From the UHGV virus genome UHGV-0274194: a stretch of DNA of 6,845 bases; one strand, written 5' to 3'. This DNA comes from a virus. A program made the position numbers and the translations under genes. Below the pieces are notes generated by a model. That model made no database searches. It was not told the origin of the DNA and saw only the letters and a list, made by a program, of their open reading frames with translations. Shown piece after piece: positions 1 through 6,845 of the stretch (position 1 is its first letter; every line of letters starts with the position of its first letter).

Positions 1-30
1 GCGTAATACGGGCGGTAATGGCTTTTTCAT
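1..30 (-). CDS. 5' end of a minus-strand gene (first 10 codons, [10 protein letters not shown]) continuing beyond the window start; product unknown, possibly the primase-side early operon
   Basis: ATG at 30..28 is preceded by GGGGAGGG about 7 nt upstream on the minus strand. Its start overlaps the stop of the 75-aa ORF (ATGA at 27-30). Too little sequence to identify the product. Confidence 0.45.
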   Translation of the reverse strand, partial: MKKPLPPVLR

Positions 31-254
31 ACGTTACCCTCCCCGGTCAGCCACTGCTGATTGCAGCGTTCGACCACGCCGTCGAGCTGGGCGGTCATGA
101 GGTAAATCACGGAGGTGAGCTGTGACTGCTGCACCGGGTCACGACGAACGGTGGCGCAGTCCTGCACCTGCATCAGCTCATTGACGAGCTGGCCGACATT
201 GCGCATATGCTCCAGACATTCGAGGTCACGGGCGGTAATGGTGGTGTGTCTCAT
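27..254 (-). CDS. Hypothetical small protein (75 aa), P4-like early-region ORF
   Basis: ORF with a GGAGG Shine-Dalgarno 7 nt upstream of ATG 254..252. ATGA overlaps with both neighbours (251-254 and 27-30) indicate translational coupling. Composition is protein-like, but I do not recognise the family. Confidence 0.6.
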
Positions 255-445
255 GCGCGCACCTCCGCAACCGGCAGACGGCCAGCAAACGAGAGGACGT
301 AATCGCGAACGAGGGAAAGGCGTGCGGCGTGCTCATCACCGGCAACGGTGCGGAGCATACAAATACGAGGGGTACGGTCTGCGCGACGAACAGCAGCAAA
401 CACAAAGACAAATTGCGGGTGTGACGGGGTGAGGGTCGTAGCCAT
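251..445 (-). CDS. Hypothetical small protein (64 aa, [16 protein letters not shown]...), start chosen at the internal ATG with an SD
   Basis: ATG 445..443 is preceded by GGAGG with 8-nt spacing. Its stop overlaps the next gene's start (ATGA at 251-254). The longer 183-aa frame upstream (to 802) has no SD and an odd P/R/G/F-rich composition. Confidence 0.5.
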
Positions 446-798
446 AGTGGCAACCTCCATTGAGTAGCGGTTATTGCCACCACCGGAGTTCCTACGCTCA
501 TGGGTGGTGACCCGAACGGGGGTAGGAATACCGGCCTCAATGAATACCGGCCAGCCCGAAGGCTGCCCCGCCCGGATCACCATTATCTGACAGGGGCTAA
601 GGTGTAAACACCACAGCCCGAAAAATGGGTGTGCCTGAGCAACGACGTAAAAAAAGACGCATGGCGCGTCCGGTGTCGCCATTGAGTAACTCGGGTTCCT
701 ACGCCCGGCTGCCGATTTTGCGACAGCGGGAAAACTATACCTGGAAACGGCGAAAAGAAGCAAGCCAGAAAAAGGGGCTGTTTGCTGAACGGTCATCA

Positions 799-1065
799 TC
801 ATGCGTCATAGCCCCGGTTACGTTCGGCAATGCGATCCGCCATCCATGCAGTGATTTCAGACTGCGCCCACGCCACATTTTTTCCGCCGAGGGAGATTTG
901 TTTCGGGAAGGCTTCCCGGCTGATGAGGTCGTAAATGGTCGAGCGGGACAGGCCGCACAGATGCATCACTTCGGGCAGACGGATAAAGCGCTCGTGAACG
1001 GTATCAGAAACCGGCATCAGAGGCGCGGCAGGGGCAGAAGACGGGGAAGAAAAAGCAGTGTGCAT
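799..1065 (-). CDS. alpA: AlpA-family phage transcriptional regulator (HTH, Vis/excisionase-like)
   Basis: The 88-aa ORF core ([48 protein letters not shown]) matches the AlpA/MerR-like prophage regulator pattern from memory. ATG 1065 has a GAGGT SD; an alternative start at ATG 1017 would give 72 aa. Confidence 0.8.
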
Positions 1066-1334
1066 CGGGCTACCTCACAAAGTCCATACAGTGCCGGTCG
1101 TGTCCGTCCGGCTTCGGGTAGCTCTCTATTTTGTGAATATTTTCCTTCAGAGCAACAAGTCATTTTGTAGTGCTTCACCATACAACAGAGCGATTTTTGA
1201 ACAATGGCAAATGCTGGCAAACAGATGCAAATCAATGCATTACATTGCAGTAACTTTAAGTACTTTCACTTATATATTTCCTCATAATTAATCGGAAAAA
1301 AGACTAAATCCGACAACCCAGGCAAAAAGCAAAA

Positions 1335-1444
1335 GGTGAACAGTAGTGAACAGTAGGTGAACAGTTATACCCCCAACTATTCACCCTTTATCTTGCTGTA
1401 TTACTTATCTTTTTCTTTTCAGTGAACAGTAGTGAATAGTTATA
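1335..1444. repeat. Cluster of iteron-like direct repeats (G)GTGAACAGTA: three tandem units at 1335-1370, two more at 1422-1444, one inverted partial copy (TATTCACC) at 1377-1385
   Basis: Repeats are directly visible. GGTGAACA is the reverse complement of TGTTCACC, the type I iteron octamer bound by P4 alpha primase at ori/crr (recalled, not searched). Confidence 0.6.
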
Positions 1445-1515
1445 AGTAAAAAAACAAACGGTGAGTAGGGTTTTCCTGAGACCTTTCTCTGGCCAGCCGG
1501 GTTTTAAGGTTTGTT

Positions 1516-1533
1516 TGTACCATTTTTGCCACA
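1516..1533 (+). promoter_or_regulatory. TGT-N12-ACA dyad, candidate Ogr/Delta activator-binding site of the late promoter Psid
   Basis: tTGTaccatttttgccACAa lies 73-90 bp upstream of the sid ATG. The P2/P4 late-promoter consensus is TGT-N12-ACA centred near -55. Confidence 0.5.
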
Positions 1534-1605
1534 ACGGCAATGAATCGTGTTGTTGTGTCCGGCGCGGCAGAATCTCCTCAGATTGAAACGAAGAGGAGAC
1601 CCGAC

Positions 1606-2343
1606 ATGACTCATACCGCTGTTATTCCCGACTACCTTAAACCCGCAATCGAACGGCTTGAGACGGCCAGAGAGGAACATCTCATTAATGCCCGACACAT
1701 GGATGAAACCACGGCGGCCATCAGCCAGGTGAAAGCACAAAAAAAGGAACTGGAGCAGGAAAACGGCAATGATTCCGGCGCATGGCGCGCCGCCTTTCGT
1801 GCCGGTGGTGCTGTCATTACCGATGATCTGAAACAACGCCATCTGGCGCGCGTGGCACGGCGGGAACTGGCGCAGGAATGTGACAGCATGAACGAGGTAC
1901 TATCTTTTGAGTTGGACAGACTCAAAGGAGCCTGTGACCGCACGGCCAGAGCATACCGTCAGGCACATCACGGCGTCCTCAGTCAGTATGCAGAGCATGA
2001 ACTTGATGCATCCCTGCGTGAAAGCTGCGGTGCCCTCATCAGAGCAATGAAACTCAACATACTGGTTCTGAATAATCCACTTGCTAATACGACCGGGCAT
2101 CAGGGATATATCGAACCGGAAAAAGTTGTAATGCAGCAGGTGAAAGCATGGCTTGAACAGGCCGTAAAGGGCTGCAATATCCGTCTGACCGATGAACCGG
2201 TGCTGTTTAAAACAGGGCTGTCGGCTTCCACACTGCCGCATATGGAACATGACGTTGCGACCACGCCCGGTCAGCGAAAAGTCTGGCAGGAAAAAATGTG
2301 GGAACGTGAAGCTGACCTGAAAGCACGGGGGTTATTGTCATGA
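1606..2343 (+). CDS. sid: Sid, capsid size determination (external scaffold) protein
   Basis: 245-aa ORF with an AGGAG SD 8 nt upstream of ATG 1606. Position immediately upstream of, and coupled to, the Ogr/Delta gene, plus a length close to P4 Sid (about 244 aa). The ORF-track start at 1540 lacks an SD. Confidence 0.8.
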   Translation: MTHTAVIPDYLKPAIERLETAREEHLINARHMDETTAAISQVKAQKKELEQENGNDSGAWRAAFRAGGAVITDDLKQRHLARVARRELAQECDSMNEVLSFELDRLKGACDRTARAYRQAHHGVLSQYAEHELDASLRESCGALIRAMKLNILVLNNPLANTTGHQGYIEPEKVVMQQVKAWLEQAVKGCNIRLTDEPVLFKTGLSASTLPHMEHDVATTPGQRKVWQEKMWEREADLKARGLLS

Positions 2344-2585
2344 TGCGCTGCCCTTTCTGCCGCACAGCGGCACACGTTCGCACCAGCCGCTATATGTCTG
2401 ACAGCGTCAAAGAGAGTTACCTACAGTGCCAGAATGTGCACTGCTCGGCGACATTCAAAACGCATGAGTCCATCTTTGAAGTGATACGTTCGCCGGTCGT
2501 CGATGAGAAACCCGCGCCGGTGCCGACAGTCCCCGTGGCACCCCGTCGGGTAAAAGGCTGCTACAGCTCGCCGTTCCGCCATTAA
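2340..2585 (+). CDS. delta: Ogr/Delta-family zinc-finger late transcriptional activator (single-domain, 81 aa)
   Basis: Cys4 motif C4-x2-C7-x22-C30-x4-C35 (CPFC...CQNVHC) exactly fits the Ogr/Delta pattern. The start overlaps the sid stop (ATGA). Confidence 0.85.
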   Translation: MMRCPFCRTAAHVRTSRYMSDSVKESYLQCQNVHCSATFKTHESIFEVIRSPVVDEKPAPVPTVPVAPRRVKGCYSSPFRH

Positions 2586-2601
2586 TCAGGAGAGACAACC
2601 C

Positions 2602-3168
2602 GTGACCACTCTGACCTTACAGCAGGCCTATGACGCCTGTCAGACGAACAAAACCGCGTGGCTGAACCGTAAAACCGAACTGGCCGCCGCAATGCAGGAA
2701 TATCAGGAATTATTGCTGGATGACAATGCATCAGGCTCCCGCAGATTACAGACGCTGCGTGACCTGATTGACGTAAAAAAATGGGAAGTGAATCAGGCCG
2801 CCGGTCGCTACATCTTCTCGCATGAGGAGGTGCAGCGCATCAGCATCCGTAACCGGCTGCATGATTTTATGCAGCAGAACGGCGCAGAGTTGACCGCCGC
2901 ACTGGCACCGGAGCTGATGGGGATTAAAAACCAGCCCGCGATGATAAAGAATCGCGCGCTTGACCGTTCAGTTTCTTACCTGAGAGAAGCTCTTTCCGTC
3001 TGGCTGACCGTTGAAAATGAAATTAATTATTCTGCACAGGATAAAGATATTTTAACGGCCATCGGATACAGGCCTGACGCGCCTTCGCGGGATGATAATC
3101 GTGAAAAATTCACCCCTGCACAGAACATGATTTACACCCGTCGACGTGCCGAACTGGCCGCGCAGTAG
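2602..3168 (+). CDS. psu: Psu, polarity suppression protein (Rho antagonist / capsid decoration)
   Basis: 188-aa ORF with a GTG start preceded by AGGAGA. Length and position after delta match P4 Psu (about 190 aa), and the sequence looks Psu-like from memory. Confidence 0.85.
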   Translation: MTTLTLQQAYDACQTNKTAWLNRKTELAAAMQEYQELLLDDNASGSRRLQTLRDLIDVKKWEVNQAAGRYIFSHEEVQRISIRNRLHDFMQQNGAELTAALAPELMGIKNQPAMIKNRALDRSVSYLREALSVWLTVENEINYSAQDKDILTAIGYRPDAPSRDDNREKFTPAQNMIYTRRRAELAAQ

Positions 3169-3214
3169 CCTGTCAAAAAATCCCCGTAAATCCCGCTATT
3201 TTTAACGAAATAAG

Positions 3215-3241
3215 CCATGCATCCATAAGGTGCATGGTTTT
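3215..3241 (+). terminator. Probable intrinsic terminator of the sid-delta-psu operon
   Basis: 7-bp perfect stem CCATGCA / TGCATGG with a 9-nt loop, followed by TTTT, 47 bp after the psu stop. Confidence 0.5.
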
Positions 3242-3573
3242 GCATGCGTTTTCTCGCTCCGGCATGACAGACCAGCGCCAGTCGTGGCGCGGCCTGAGAC
3301 CACCTTTGCACCTGCATTAAAAGCGGCCCATTAAGCGGGCAGGCGTGGCGGGGAGAGCATTGCGCGCTGGCCTTCTATCTAATAACTTTGGGTTAAAGTA
3401 AGTCACAAGGTCAATGAAAGCTTTGTGAGATACAGATAAGCTATAATTGCTGCGATTGTGAATTAATCAATCGGGATTAGCACCATTTTCTTGTGTAACA
3501 TAAAAATTTCGGTAAACTCATTCTAAAAACTCGTGAAAAAATAATTATAACTCTATTCTTAGGAGGGTGTATT

Positions 3574-4212
3574 GTGTTGAATCCTGATGATTTGGATGAG
3601 GGTGTTTATCCAGATTGCTACTGGAGTTATATAGGGCAAAAGGATTATTTGAAGCCTAACACATACTTACAAGATGCAATTGATGATTTGAATTCAGGAA
3701 GTGAACGCCGAAATATGAATAATGCAGTGCGAAATGCAAAATCGGCATTACATATGAGAGTGGATATTCTTTGTCGAGCTTTTTGTGGCCGCGAATATTT
3801 CCAAAGGAATCTAAGGAACTTTCCAAAAAAGATGGATTTCCTAGAGGGAATTGGAATAGTTAGACCTAGAATAATTGATAAAATAAATAAAATAAGAAAT
3901 GAAATTGAGCACGAGTATCGAGATGCAACTCTTGAGGAAGCAGAGGATTTCATAGATATAGTTTTATTGTTTATGGAAGCAACTAGATATTTAAATTCAA
4001 GGTTTCCATGTGAAGTTGACTTCCATGGATTGGCAGTTTCTGATGAGGTTTATTTAAGGAGAGTAGTATGCAATTGGGAAGGTGGAGAATTACTTTTTTA
4101 CTATTCAAAGCAAGAGTCACGCCGGCTTGATAACGTGCAAACCTACTCAATAAAAGTGGGTGATTATAGATACGCTCGGTGGGTAAAATTCATTCTAGAT
4201 CATTGCGATTGA
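3574..4212 (+). CDS. Cargo protein, 212 aa, putative HEPN-domain RNase (HepT-like RNxxxHxY motif); function unverified
   Basis: GTG start with a strong SD (AGGAGGG, 6-nt spacing). Motif I-R108-N-E-I-E-H113-E-Y115 equals Rx4HxY in a predicted helical context. About 30% GC, far below the flanking core. A perfect TATAAT at 3442-3447 upstream has no good -35. Confidence 0.6.
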   Translation: MLNPDDLDEGVYPDCYWSYIGQKDYLKPNTYLQDAIDDLNSGSERRNMNNAVRNAKSALHMRVDILCRAFCGREYFQRNLRNFPKKMDFLEGIGIVRPRIIDKINKIRNEIEHEYRDATLEEAEDFIDIVLLFMEATRYLNSRFPCEVDFHGLAVSDEVYLRRVVCNWEGGELLFYYSKQESRRLDNVQTYSIKVGDYRYARWVKFILDHCD

Positions 4213-4249
4213 TATACTATTTGTCCTAACTCACTAAAATAAGTATTTT

Positions 4250-4276
4250 AGACCGAGCTAGGCGTAGCCTCGGTCT
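4250..4276. terminator. Hairpin between the convergent cargo genes (candidate bidirectional terminator)
   Basis: 8-bp perfect stem AGACCGAG / CTCGGTCT with an 11-nt loop, sited between the stop of the plus-strand gene (4212) and the stop of the minus-strand gene (4285). The flanking U-tracts are weak. Confidence 0.45.
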
Positions 4277-4284
4277 AAGTGTTA

Positions 4285-5310
4285 TCAATTTGCCAATGCA
4301 GCAACTAATCTTGCTAATTCATTGAAATTACTACTGAATTCTTTTCTGTTTTCTTTCATCGTATCCAGTATTACTCCATTTTGCTCTATTTGTGCATCTG
4401 AGAGGGCGAATACCGGCGTGCTATGTTTTTGAGATTGAGCAATTAGTGAGTTAAAGTCAGAAATATTCGCCAAATTAAAGGGCTCTTTTGAGGGACAGGC
4501 ATTTTCAAAATCAGTAACCGAAATTGACATATTGATAGGATTTAAAGCTGGTATTAATGTATTAGTGACCTCATCTTTGATAATATCAATCCATCTTTGA
4601 AATGATTTTACTGGTAAATTATTTCTTGGACGATACTTCTGAGATATAAATCCGATGAATTTCGGCGGATCAATAGGGAATGGATATAATATTCCACTAT
4701 CTCTAAAGTTATTTATCTCGCTGTTCCATCTAGGAAGAACTTTTGCGAGTGACTTTATTGCCTGAGCACAGAAAAAATCTGGTGATGTAGGAACTATAAA
4801 ATAGTCACTGCACATTAAGAGACATTCATTTAATGCACCAACGCTGGGGCTCATGTCAATAAGGACATAATCAAATTCATGTTTGCGCGCAGTCTCACGC
4901 AAAAAAGCTCCGATGCTGCCGGGGATATTTCTAATTGCGGGAATAGCAGCGCTGGTTGTCAGCGCAACTCCAATCTGTGTTTCAATTTCTGATAAATAGA
5001 TGCTACCACACAATAAACTTAAATTTGGATTTGTTGTGACTAATGGGTCGGATGGTATAACTTTTCCTAAAGAACCATCTACAACAGGTTTGATGCAACT
5101 ATAAATATCACAGTTTGGATTGTTTTTATAGATTTCATCAAAGTCATCAGTGGTCGAATAGCCCAAAGCTAAGGCTGTCAAATTACATTGTGGATCAGCA
5201 TCAACTATTAAAACTTTATAGCCAAGATTAGCTAGCATCCACCCCATGTTAAAAGTCGTGGTTGTCTTACTAACACCACCTTTATGATTAAATAAAGATA
5301 TTATTTTCAT
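4285..5310 (-). CDS. ParA/MinD-like P-loop ATPase (deviant Walker A), 341 aa, with a long C-terminal extension
   Basis: N-terminus FNHKGGVSKTT is a deviant Walker A (KGGxxK[ST]); A' motif VLIVDADPQ; Walker B FDYVLIDMSP. AAGGA SD 7 nt upstream of the ATG. About 36% GC. Confidence 0.8.
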   Translation of the reverse strand: MKIISLFNHKGGVSKTTTTFNMGWMLANLGYKVLIVDADPQCNLTALALGYSTTDDFDEIYKNNPNCDIYSCIKPVVDGSLGKVIPSDPLVTTNPNLSLLCGSIYLSEIETQIGVALTTSAAIPAIRNIPGSIGAFLRETARKHEFDYVLIDMSPSVGALNECLLMCSDYFIVPTSPDFFCAQAIKSLAKVLPRWNSEINNFRDSGILYPFPIDPPKFIGFISQKYRPRNNLPVKSFQRWIDIIKDEVTNTLIPALNPINMSISVTDFENACPSKEPFNLANISDFNSLIAQSQKHSTPVFALSDAQIEQNGVILDTMKENRKEFSSNFNELARLVAALAN

Positions 5311-5332
5311 TCGAAATCCTTAATAGAAATTA

Positions 5333-6499
5333 TTACTTTAAAAGATAGTTGCTATACCACTGAAGCATTTCCCTTCTTCTTTCAAGGTATTGAGCATGAT
5401 TATATGTTCCTCGAATACTATTCTTATCAACATGAGCAAGTTGCAACTCAATCCATGCACTATCAAACCCTTGTTCATGCAATATTGTCGACATTGTATG
5501 TCTGAAACCGTGACCTGTAGCACGACCTTTATAACCCAGTAGTTCAATTACTTGCGACACACTCTCCTTAGATATTGGTTTGTTACGGTTGTTTCGCCCA
5601 ATAAAAATGTAAGGATAGTGTCTTGTAATAGGTTTTAGTTGGTTAAAAAGATCAACGACTTGTGTTGATAGAGGGATAATATGGGGTCTGCGCATTTTCA
5701 TTCGTTCTGCGGGGATTTCCCATAAACCTCTCTCAAGGTCAACCTCATCCCATGCTGCAAAGCGCATCTCTTGAGTTCTCACACCGGTGAGCATAACTAT
5801 CTTTGTTGCATTTTTCGTTATGATGCTACCGGTATACGCTTCGAGATCCTGAATAAAATGAGGCAATTCTTCGGCAGATAGAAATGGATGATGTTTTTGT
5901 TTAGGAACGGCCAGAGCGATGGCTAAATCAGGCGCAGGATTGTATTCAGCGCGGCCAGTTATGATTGCGTAGCGATAAACCTCACCGCACCTCTGACGCA
6001 CCTTACGTGTTTTCTCTAGTGCCCCACGCTTCTCTATTCGTCGCAATACTTCAAGCAGTTCTAACGGTTTGATTTCACTGATAGGGCGTTTACCAATGAA
6101 CGGGAACACATCTTGCTCAAATGTCTTAATGATTTCTTCGCGATAGGCCACTGTCCAGCGGTCAGCTTTGTTAGTGTACCATTCTCGACATATGGTTTCG
6201 AATGAGTTCTCTGTTGAGAGTTGCTGTGCCAGTTTTTGGGCTTTACGTTCTCCCACTGGGTCTATGCCGTTTGCTACCTGCTTACGAGCGGTATCGCGTT
6301 TCTCACGTGCTTCTGCGAGGCTCACAAGGTTGTAGCTGCCAAATGACATTAGCCGTGCTTTACCGGCAAAACGAAAGCGGAAGCGCCAGCCCTTTGAGCC
6401 GTCTGGATTGATGAGTAATGACAGGCCTTGTCCATCGTTCAGTGTGTAGGGTTTGTTTTGGGGCTTTGCTCGTTTAATTTGTATATCTGTTAGTGGCAT
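5333..6499 (-). CDS. int: P4-type tyrosine site-specific integrase (selC-targeting family)
   Basis: 388 aa. The N-terminal arm-binding region ([24 protein letters not shown]) is typical of P4-like integrases, and catalytic-core motifs are present (R in GVRTQEMR, HxxR in GHGFRHT, LAHV, Y in RGTYNHAQY). It is adjacent to and co-oriented with the tRNA 3' end. Confidence 0.9.
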   Translation of the reverse strand: MPLTDIQIKRAKPQNKPYTLNDGQGLSLLINPDGSKGWRFRFRFAGKARLMSFGSYNLVSLAEAREKRDTARKQVANGIDPVGERKAQKLAQQLSTENSFETICREWYTNKADRWTVAYREEIIKTFEQDVFPFIGKRPISEIKPLELLEVLRRIEKRGALEKTRKVRQRCGEVYRYAIITGRAEYNPAPDLAIALAVPKQKHHPFLSAEELPHFIQDLEAYTGSIITKNATKIVMLTGVRTQEMRFAAWDEVDLERGLWEIPAERMKMRRPHIIPLSTQVVDLFNQLKPITRHYPYIFIGRNNRNKPISKESVSQVIELLGYKGRATGHGFRHTMSTILHEQGFDSAWIELQLAHVDKNSIRGTYNHAQYLERRREMLQWYSNYLLK

Positions 6500-6550
6500 G
6501 TGTATAAGTCAAAAGTGTGTATAAAAAATCTATACACATCACTATACATA
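6500..6550. promoter_or_regulatory. int upstream region with palindrome TGTGTATA-N7-TATACACA (6516-6538) and extra GTGTATA / TATACA copies; candidate operator or integrase arm sites
   Basis: Perfect 8-bp inverted repeat with a 7-bp spacer. Another GTGTATA sits at 6500-6506 abutting the int start codon, and ACTATACATA at 6541-6550. Confidence 0.4.
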
Positions 6551-6660
6551 TTTTTCATGGATTCAGGGAGAGCTTGTCGGACGGTTACGGATGAGCGATT
6601 TACTATATGCTTTGAAAATAAAGGATTTTTAGACTTTCTCGGATGGTGACGGAGGAATTT

Positions 6661-6728
6661 TGGCGGAAGATCACAGGAGTCGAACCTGCCCGGGACCGCT
6701 GGCGGCCCCAACTGGATTTGAAGTCCAG
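6661..6728 (-). tRNA. selC: Truncated tRNA-Sec (selC): the 3' 68 nt only (anticodon arm with UCA, long variable arm, T arm, 3' acceptor strand with GCCA); the 5' acceptor strand and D arm are missing
   Basis: The reverse complement CTGGACTTCAAATCCAGTTGGGGCCGCCAGCGGTCCCGGGCAGGTTCGACTCCTGTGATCTTCCGCCA matches the 3' portion of E. coli selC as recalled. The TCA anticodon and long extra arm are visible. The match stops abruptly at 6728. Confidence 0.8.
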
Positions 6729-6845
6729 AACGATGGACAAGGCCTGTCATTACTCATCAATCCAGACGGCTCAAAGGGCTGGCGCTTCCGCTTTCGTTTT
6801 GCCGGTAAAGCACGGCTAATGTCATTTGGCAGCTACAACCTTGTG
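6729..6845 (+). repeat. Perfect inverted duplicate of int codons 21-59 (partner arm 6323..6439), fused to the truncated selC and running off the window; possibly the 5'-truncated start of a second, oppositely oriented integrase
   Basis: Manual base-by-base reverse-complement comparison of 6323-6439 with 6729-6845 gives 117/117 identity. It translates on the plus strand as [39 protein letters not shown], with no in-frame start codon upstream. Confidence 0.9.

Follow-up and report, generated by a model that had tools for sequence, protein, structure and literature searches.

Features of the locus

The DNA analyzed here, referred to as the window, is the whole 6,845-nt stretch of virus genome UHGV-0274194. 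Related loci with which it was compared are denoted by L numbers. The following features were identified in the window:

27-254, minus strand: ORF of 75 aa in a P4-like left (early) operon, also called as a gene in relatives L004, L005, L007 and L023
251-802, minus strand: Ash/Icd-like ORF of 183 aa, a core component of the P4 epsilon/ash family (PF10554 Phage_ASH, E 1.2e-29)
500-587, minus strand: C4 antisense RNA, a P4 CI-type immunity RNA (Rfam RF01695, full length, 81.3 bits against a gathering score of 45)
650-727, minus strand: isrK-family small RNA of P4-like elements (Rfam RF01394, 70.9 bits, gathering score 50)
799-1065, minus strand: alpA, regulator/excisionase of the P4 ORF88 type, 88 aa (PF05930 Phage_AlpA, E 3e-20; 70% to P4 ORF88)
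1336-1440, no strand assigned: GTGAACAGT-type iterons, ori-like repeats between alpA and sid (direct repeat family D2)
1606-2343, plus strand: sid, capsid size determination, 245 aa (63% to P4 Sid over 240 aa; annotated at 245 aa in relatives)
2340-2585, plus strand: delta, short single-domain form, 81 aa (PF04606 Ogr_Delta, one domain)
2602-3168, plus strand: psu, 188 aa (PF07455, E 1.6e-88; 61-62% to P4 Psu and phiR73-type Psu)
3342-3367, plus strand: cos core, the recombination breakpoint of two arms (16/19 positions shared with the P2/P4 cohesive-end sequence; alignment to P4 nt 1-26)
3574-4212, plus strand: HEPN-like cargo gene, 212 aa (R108-N-x2-E-H113 motif, weak fold match, system 47 of Rousset 2022)
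4285-5310, minus strand: ParA/MinD-type ATPase cargo gene, 341 aa (PF13614 AAA_31, 110.7 bits; CbiA, 54.8 bits)
5333-6499, minus strand: selC-specific P4-family tyrosine integrase, 388 aa (Arm-DNA-bind_3, Phage_int_M and Phage_integrase domains)
6652-6680, minus strand: att core, attL copy (selC positions 76-95 and 9 nt downstream, from the attB/attL/attR alignment)
6661-6728, minus strand: 3′ 68 nt of host selC, the tRNA-Sec gene (exact match to positions 28-95 of the 95-nt E. coli selC)
6728-6845, plus strand: inverted duplicate of 6323-6440, int codons about 20-59 at the N-terminus (inverted repeat I1, 118 nt, 100%)

Read leftward from the right end of the window, the order is selC, att core, int, ParA-like gene, HEPN-like gene, cos, psu, delta, sid, ori, alpA and finally the CI RNA, isrK and ash, which is the order of the P4 prophage. 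The core set of P4-like satellites given by Moura de Sousa & Rocha comprises int, psu, delta, sid, alpA, ash/epsilon and alpha. Pfam matches to Psu, Ogr_Delta, Phage_AlpA, Phage_ASH and Phage_integrase were obtained in the window, together with a Sid 63% identical to that of P4. An earlier note on this DNA had proposed a P4-like satellite at selC, and the core genes, the RNAs and the cos site bear this out. The alpha (primase) gene and attR of the element are located past the left end of the window. Three complete chromosomal copies (L004, L005 and L007) are 99.9% identical to positions 1-6728 and have intact selC, alpha and attR; it is these copies, beyond the window itself, that encode the 777-aa alpha primase-helicase. 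The element in L005 measures 9,645 bp between its repeats. The best match of the window in the phage collection was P4 (72%), and cluster members of nine window proteins had generic names, with no phiR73 label among them.

In L004 (18349-21026) and L007 (18337-21026) DUF6680, IS, HicB, SymE and autotransporter genes are found past attR of the window-type element, an indication that the selC locus of these hosts may hold tandem islands or remnants. The selC genes of these two hosts differ from E. coli selC by 2-4 nt.

The selC fragment, the att core and the contig end

Positions 6661-6728 are the last 68 nt of E. coli selC and the start codon of int lies 161 nt from the tRNA-Sec 3′ end, as the earlier note had stated. 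This fragment was matched in 5,426 of 5,426 complete E. coli genomes, and in all relatives a full-length selC (95 nt) is present, followed by yicJ. The sequence of the att core is ACTCCTGTGATCTTCCGCCAAAAT(T/G)CCTC, in which one mismatch distinguishes the element-derived from the host-derived copy. It was found as a 29-nt direct repeat with 1 mismatch at the opposite boundary in L002-L005, L007, L016 and L018. In L004, L005 and L007 the repeat of the selC 3′ end is 23-29 nt long and lies about 300 nt past alpha. A matching repeat at the far boundary had been anticipated; it exists in complete relatives, and the tRNA end in the window contains the att core.

The match to selC ends at 6728 because positions 6728-6845 are an inverted copy of int sequence. 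The junction falls within the selC anticodon stem with 1 nt of microhomology, and in all relatives the 118-mer occurs only once, inside int. Exact searches of genome, metagenome and viral contig collections with the 35-mer that spans the junction (6728/6729) gave no match, and no ORF spanning the junction is on record. Most likely, 6728-6845 is an assembly or library fold-back chimera at the end of the contig and no part of the element. This structure could also be explained by a real chromosomal rearrangement, in which an inverted duplication disrupted selC in the source strain. The perfection of the repeat over 118 nt and the clean junction would fit such an event. However, it was seen neither in the 12 loci with the exact ParA gene or its DNA (L001, L002, L004-L013), nor in L003, nor in the 5,426 E. 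coli genomes, and the junction 35-mer is missing from three public collections. Moreover, the repeat is located at the extreme end of the sequence and the rearrangement would have inactivated the tRNA-Sec gene. We consider a rearrangement improbable and treat the terminal 118 nt as a probable chimera.

ARAGORN reports a full-length tRNA-SeC at 6665-6757, the 5′ 29 nt of which are inverted int sequence. This call is chimeric and the full-length gene is false: real selC is confined to 6661-6728, so that of the complete 95-nt gene expected of a functional tRNA-Sec only positions 28-95 are present in the window. The window is an example of how a chimeric contig end can yield a false full-length tRNA call.

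Immunity region, origin and late genes

No Pfam match was obtained for the 75-aa ORF at 27-254, and exactly the same protein is encoded in 494 contigs. The Ash/Icd-like protein is 73% identical to the ORF annotated in P4 as 'cI gene product' (P4p10, 137 aa) and 60% identical to the Icd-like protein of the phiR73 type. Both the C4 RNA and isrK lie wholly inside this ORF and on the same strand. The ORF may be untranslated in part, by analogy with what was formerly annotated in P4 as the 'cI protein'.

Between alpA and sid, tandem GTGAACAGT motifs occupy positions 1336-1354 and 1422-1440, in the place of the P4 ori. These iterons may resemble those bound by alpha in P4. Their TGTTCAC motif recurs in a crr-like region beside retron Ec73 in L016 (8150-8550).

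The delta product was correctly described earlier as the short single-domain type, since it has 81 aa and one Ogr_Delta domain against 166 aa in P4. It is 76.5% identical to the 81-aa delta product of the Ec73-bearing element.

Integrase and the HEPN/ParA cargo

The integrase shows 100% identity to its counterpart in the Ec73-bearing selC element, against 37% to P4 Int. The two cargo genes named in the earlier note, HEPN-like (3574-4212) and ParA-like (4285-5310), are real. In the HEPN-like protein the residues R108-N-E-I-E-H113, which conform to the HEPN R-x4-6-H motif, are invariant in 19 homologues. Its AlphaFold model is confident (pLDDT 85) and consists of a helical bundle over residues 28-136 and a C-terminal beta domain. 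When the model was compared with the PDB using Foldseek, the top matches were HEPN proteins, with probabilities of 0.95-1.0 and weak E values of 0.08-0.2. The score against Pfam HEPN_RiboL-PSP (17.9 bits) is below the 28.4 cut-off, and no sequence match to the protein was found in the PDB. The family is small, with 25 clusters, all of them from Enterobacterales.

The ParA-like gene follows int on the same strand after a gap of 22 nt. Its product carries a deviant Walker A motif, KGGVSKTT, at residues 10-17, and the best match among its solved relatives is 3pg5, followed by Soj/ParF and ParA. Pfam detected no ParB-like domain in any ORF of the window, and the only neighbors of the cargo ParA gene are the HEPN-like gene and int.

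Both cargo proteins are identical to proteins 1 (HEPN-like) and 2 (ParA-like) of P4 hotspot system 47 in Table S1B of Rousset et al. 2022. That entry lists 25 occurrences, a psu-int location and the note 'Likely a RNAse'. Among the tested systems in Table S2 of the same paper there is no AAA_31 or HEPN_RiboL-PSP entry, and system 47 is not one of them. PADLOC did not recognize the pair and reported only a P-loop match, and a literature search found no later validation of a ParA+HEPN system.

The convergent HEPN/ParA pair is also present beside int and selC in an Edwardsiella P4-like satellite (L023, 7001-10229) and in a Serratia island (L020 and L021, Serratia marcescens, 7001-10194), where the triad of HEPN-like gene, ParA-like gene and int has been kept. 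The Serratia triad is without P4 late genes and adjoins colicin and microcin genes. In L022 (307-9766; Logan SRR33442294) a HEPN homologue of 58% identity occurs without ParA, clustered with AIPR, RES, ParE/ParD, DUF4145 and KAP NTPase genes, and this cluster looks like a defence island.

The pair is a candidate anti-phage or abortive-infection module, in which a predicted HEPN RNase would be the effector and the ParA-type ATPase would act as regulator or sensor; we put the chances of this at about even. The pair could instead serve the satellite itself, by providing partition or addiction for the P4 plasmid state or by helping the integrase. A ParA-type ATPase gene only 22 nt from int on the same strand would suit such a role, as would the triad kept intact beside selC in Serratia and Edwardsiella. 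Plasmid persistence is possible for P4 (PMC8628076), and partition systems are frequent in the P2 hotspot. Against this, there is no ParB or centromere-binding partner and the HEPN homologue also occurs solo in the defence island of L022. The locus is, moreover, a documented defence hotspot in which most of the unknowns that were tested protect against phages. On balance, a service to the satellite is the main alternative and seems unlikely, and the candidate defence module is the reading that we carry forward.

Retron Ec73 and the phiR73-type elements

Two classes can be told apart among the loci that encode exactly this ParA protein. The first is of the window type, and in the second a 'retron St85 family' effector and a 316-aa reverse transcriptase (RT) are encoded beyond alpha. 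The element of E. coli SC423 (L016), a member of the second class, occupies SC423 positions 391,866-404,553 and measures 12,688 bp between 29-nt repeats at selC. Just upstream of its effector gene lie exact matches to the native parts, 22 and 25 nt long, of msd primers published for Ec73. The SC423 RT has the primer-encoded Ec73 termini RIYSLIDS... and ...NLHNK[G/V]E. The RT (316 aa) carries D189/D190 and the effector E117, as reported for Ec73, and the order msr-msd, ORF, RT is that described for Retron-Eco3 in phiR73 at selC. Because primer sites, RT termini, these residues and gene order all agree, the SC423 retron is Ec73. PGAP labels Ec73 in these selC satellites as 'retron St85 family'.

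The phiR73 of Sun et al., 1991, is reported to be 12.7 kb long with 29-bp repeats, in agreement with the SC423 element. The label 'phiR73-type' is accordingly used here on the strength of Ec73 identity, the selC site and the size and repeats reported for phiR73, rather than of the original phiR73 sequence from strain Cl-23.

In three Ec73-bearing E. coli genomes (SC423, M10 and 401651) the HEPN-like protein, the ParA-like protein and Int are identical to those of the window and the cargo is located between psu and int. The retron in these genomes is located between alpha and attR, where it coexists with the HEPN/ParA cargo. Among the 5,426 complete E. coli genomes Ec73 was found at 100% in 4, the HEPN/ParA cargo in 4, and both in 3. 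In L016 the retron (msr-msd, 316-aa effector and 316-aa RT) occupies positions 5896-8300, between the alpha/crr region and attR, and it is similarly placed in L001, L006, L008-L011 and L018. Rousset et al. 2022 cite phiR73 among the retrons of the psu-int locus. They thus seem to place its retron in the psu-int hotspot, as against the alpha-attR position in the Ec73-bearing genomes examined here.

No RVT domain (Pfam) and no tblastn match to the Ec73 RT was found anywhere in the window, and the earlier statement that no reverse transcriptase is encoded there holds. The window stops short of alpha and attR, and the lack of a retron between them is seen in the 99.9% identical relatives L004, L005 and L007, where tblastn with the Ec73 RT likewise gave no match.

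The element of GmM062 (L018, 4177-14434) combines a phiR73-type backbone and Ec73 between alpha and attR with another cargo (HEPN domain protein WP_047649655) and another int. The two cargo sites therefore vary independently. The sid gene of this element is truncated and its psu is a pseudogene. In E. coli E203449 (L019, 12236-14309) a 76%-identical St85-family retron adjoins the attR repeat of selC. The island there is not of the P4 type and also encodes an integrase-domain protein, a RepA helicase and a second RT. Retrons of this family thus occupy the attR-proximal end of different selC islands.

The RT of Rousset system 8 was tried as Ec73 and rejected. What it retrieved was an unrelated IMG/VR contig, as well as P4 variants that are integrated at leuX and carry another St85-family retron. 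One divergent P4-like satellite, at a tRNA-Leu gene in E. coli M217 (L015, 1566-13234), runs from int through alpha, sid, psu and delta to the St85-family retron of system 8. Satellites of the M217 type are present at >=99% identity in 154 of 5,426 complete E. coli genomes, and any match was found in 156.

The element is a mosaic of two arms

Comparison of the window with SC423 revealed an abrupt change in similarity. The proteins to the right of cos (Int, ParA and HEPN) are 100% identical, whereas identity on the other side is 76.5% for Delta, 62% for Psu, 63% for Sid, 72% for AlpA and 60% for Ash. At the DNA level the two sequences are 100% identical over 3377-6728 and only 50-77% identical left of 3341. 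Sid and Psu of the phiR73 type are no closer to the window than those of P4. The left part has its counterpart in a third element, at selC of E. coli 20220828076 (CP151161), to which the window element is 99.8% identical along 6,397 bp that extend from cos to attR and include psu, sid and alpha. The CP151161 satellite carries an unrelated cargo (a Sll1717-family ATPase) and an int of 85% identity.

A three-way alignment showed that the window equals CP151161 left of cos and SC423 right of cos, with the switch inside the 26-nt cos core (3342-3367). This shared core begins at the position of P4 nucleotide 1. The second boundary of the shared arm is the 29-nt att core. Since the switches fall in the cos core and the att core, the exchanged unit is the whole cos-cargo-int-att arm. 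Not every exchange ends at cos, because in Res13 (L002) similarity to the window reaches into psu.

These data bear directly on how the window element is related to phiR73. The earlier note had regarded it as a phiR73-like satellite in which the retron cassette between psu and int was swapped for HEPN/ParA on an otherwise conserved backbone. Such a swap would agree with the citation of phiR73 among psu-int retrons by Rousset et al., with the window lacking an RT, and with an Int 100% identical to that of Ec73-bearing elements. It is contradicted by SC423, M10 and 401651, which have the identical HEPN/ParA genes at psu-int and the retron between alpha and attR. HEPN/ParA did not replace the retron; the window element lacks Ec73 because the retron sits on the alpha side of att, in the arm that was not inherited. 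The conserved backbone does not stand either, with Psu at 62%, Sid at 63%, Delta at 76.5% and AlpA at 72%. Comparison of core genes with the phiR73 type therefore supports the proposed kinship for int (100% to the Ec73-bearing type) and fails for psu, sid and delta (62-77%). We regard the retron swap as very improbable. Descent of the window lineage from a phiR73-type element by simple vertical inheritance, with deletion of the retron and ordinary divergence, would account for the integration site, Int and cargo that they have in common. Yet a uniform clock cannot yield 100% identity along 3.35 kb to the right of cos and 50-77% to its left, and CP151161, a third element, matches the diverged arm at 99.8% identity. 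This explanation has next to no chance of being correct. Cargo exchange on a conserved backbone, which the earlier note had suggested, is nevertheless real if CP151161 is taken as the reference (99.8%, other cargo, 85% int), but not with phiR73 in that place.

Overall, we conclude with a probability of roughly 0.85 that the window represents two thirds, on the attL side, of a P4-like phage satellite of 9.6 kb, which is integrated at the 3′ end of selC in an Escherichia-type host. The satellite is a two-arm mosaic, its cos-to-att arm (cargo and int) being that of phiR73-type elements and the remainder coming from a retron-free P4-like lineage.

A possible route of arm exchange

We infer a mechanism of exchange from the breakpoints in three elements. 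In linear form the satellite genome runs from cos through cargo, int, attP, the retron where present, and alpha to psu and the second cos. Two selC-type satellites that reside in or infect the same cell could be joined through their shared cohesive ends, either after injection or during packaging, or could recombine at cos. Recombination of att with att (attP x attP) by Int would then resolve the joined satellites into chimeric monomers with breakpoints at cos and att. Alternatively, the crossover on the att side might be recombination in the shared host flank. The breakpoints observed at cos and att have the pattern expected from cohesive-end joining and att resolution. Rousset et al. suggested that recombination acts on cos ends together with a second homologous event, and according to a 2026 survey (PMC13586616) the recombination processes behind the exchange are still to be elucidated.

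We tentatively suggest that the cos-cargo-int-att arm may be a self-contained exchange cassette, which would be swapped among satellites with the same att by cohesive-end joining and att resolution by its own Int. The HEPN/ParA pair within it would be a new two-gene abortive-infection system linked to the selC integrase across Escherichia, Edwardsiella and Serratia. This combined proposal is possible rather than probable. If true, exchange of such cassettes would explain the very fast turnover of defence genes in P4-like satellites.

Relation to published work and to the closest known systems

The finding is already known in kind. P4-like satellites in tRNA genes have been published (PMC8628076), as have the cos-adjacent P4 hotspot with hundreds of cargo arrangements (PMC9122126) and a minor hotspot between primase and att, along with swaps that proceed very fast among near-identical elements (PMC13586616). 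Cargo exchange on a conserved P4-like backbone is likewise described (PMC9122126, PMC13586616), the HEPN/ParA cargo has been published and the exact element is annotated in public genomes. The present analysis adds a correction, namely that in the Ec73-bearing genomes examined Ec73 occupies the end between alpha and attR, rather than the psu-int hotspot, and coexists with HEPN/ParA. It also adds a clear case, built on three elements, of the entire cos-to-att arm being swapped as a unit, one of the breakpoints lying in the 26-nt cos core. The case agrees with the proposal of Rousset et al. that cos ends recombine and makes it slightly more precise.

The window element is most instructively compared with four known systems. 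With the phiR73-type elements (SC423, M10 and 401651; retron Ec73, or Retron-Eco3) it shares the selC site, the 29-nt att core, identical Int, ParA and HEPN proteins, the cos-to-att DNA, the short 81-aa delta and the P4 gene order. They differ in having Ec73 between alpha and attR and a length of 12.7 kb, whereas the window element is without Ec73 and 9.6 kb long, and in their sid, delta, psu, alpA, ash and alpha genes, which are 60-80% identical to those of the window lineage. The CP151161 satellite and its relatives use the same selC site, and identity is 99.8% along the stretch that starts at cos, includes psu, delta, sid, the immunity region and alpha, and ends at attR; their cargo is instead a single Sll1717-family P-loop ATPase and their int is 85% identical in DNA. 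P4 (NC_001609) has the same gene order, cos, CI RNA, homologues of Sid, Psu, AlpA and Ash, and the cos-int hotspot. It differs in its integration at leuX, an Int of 37% identity, a two-domain delta of 166 aa, the gop-beta-cII cargo and core proteins that are 61-73% identical. From system 47 of Rousset 2022 the cargo of the window does not differ at all, both proteins being identical and placed at the same psu-int site.
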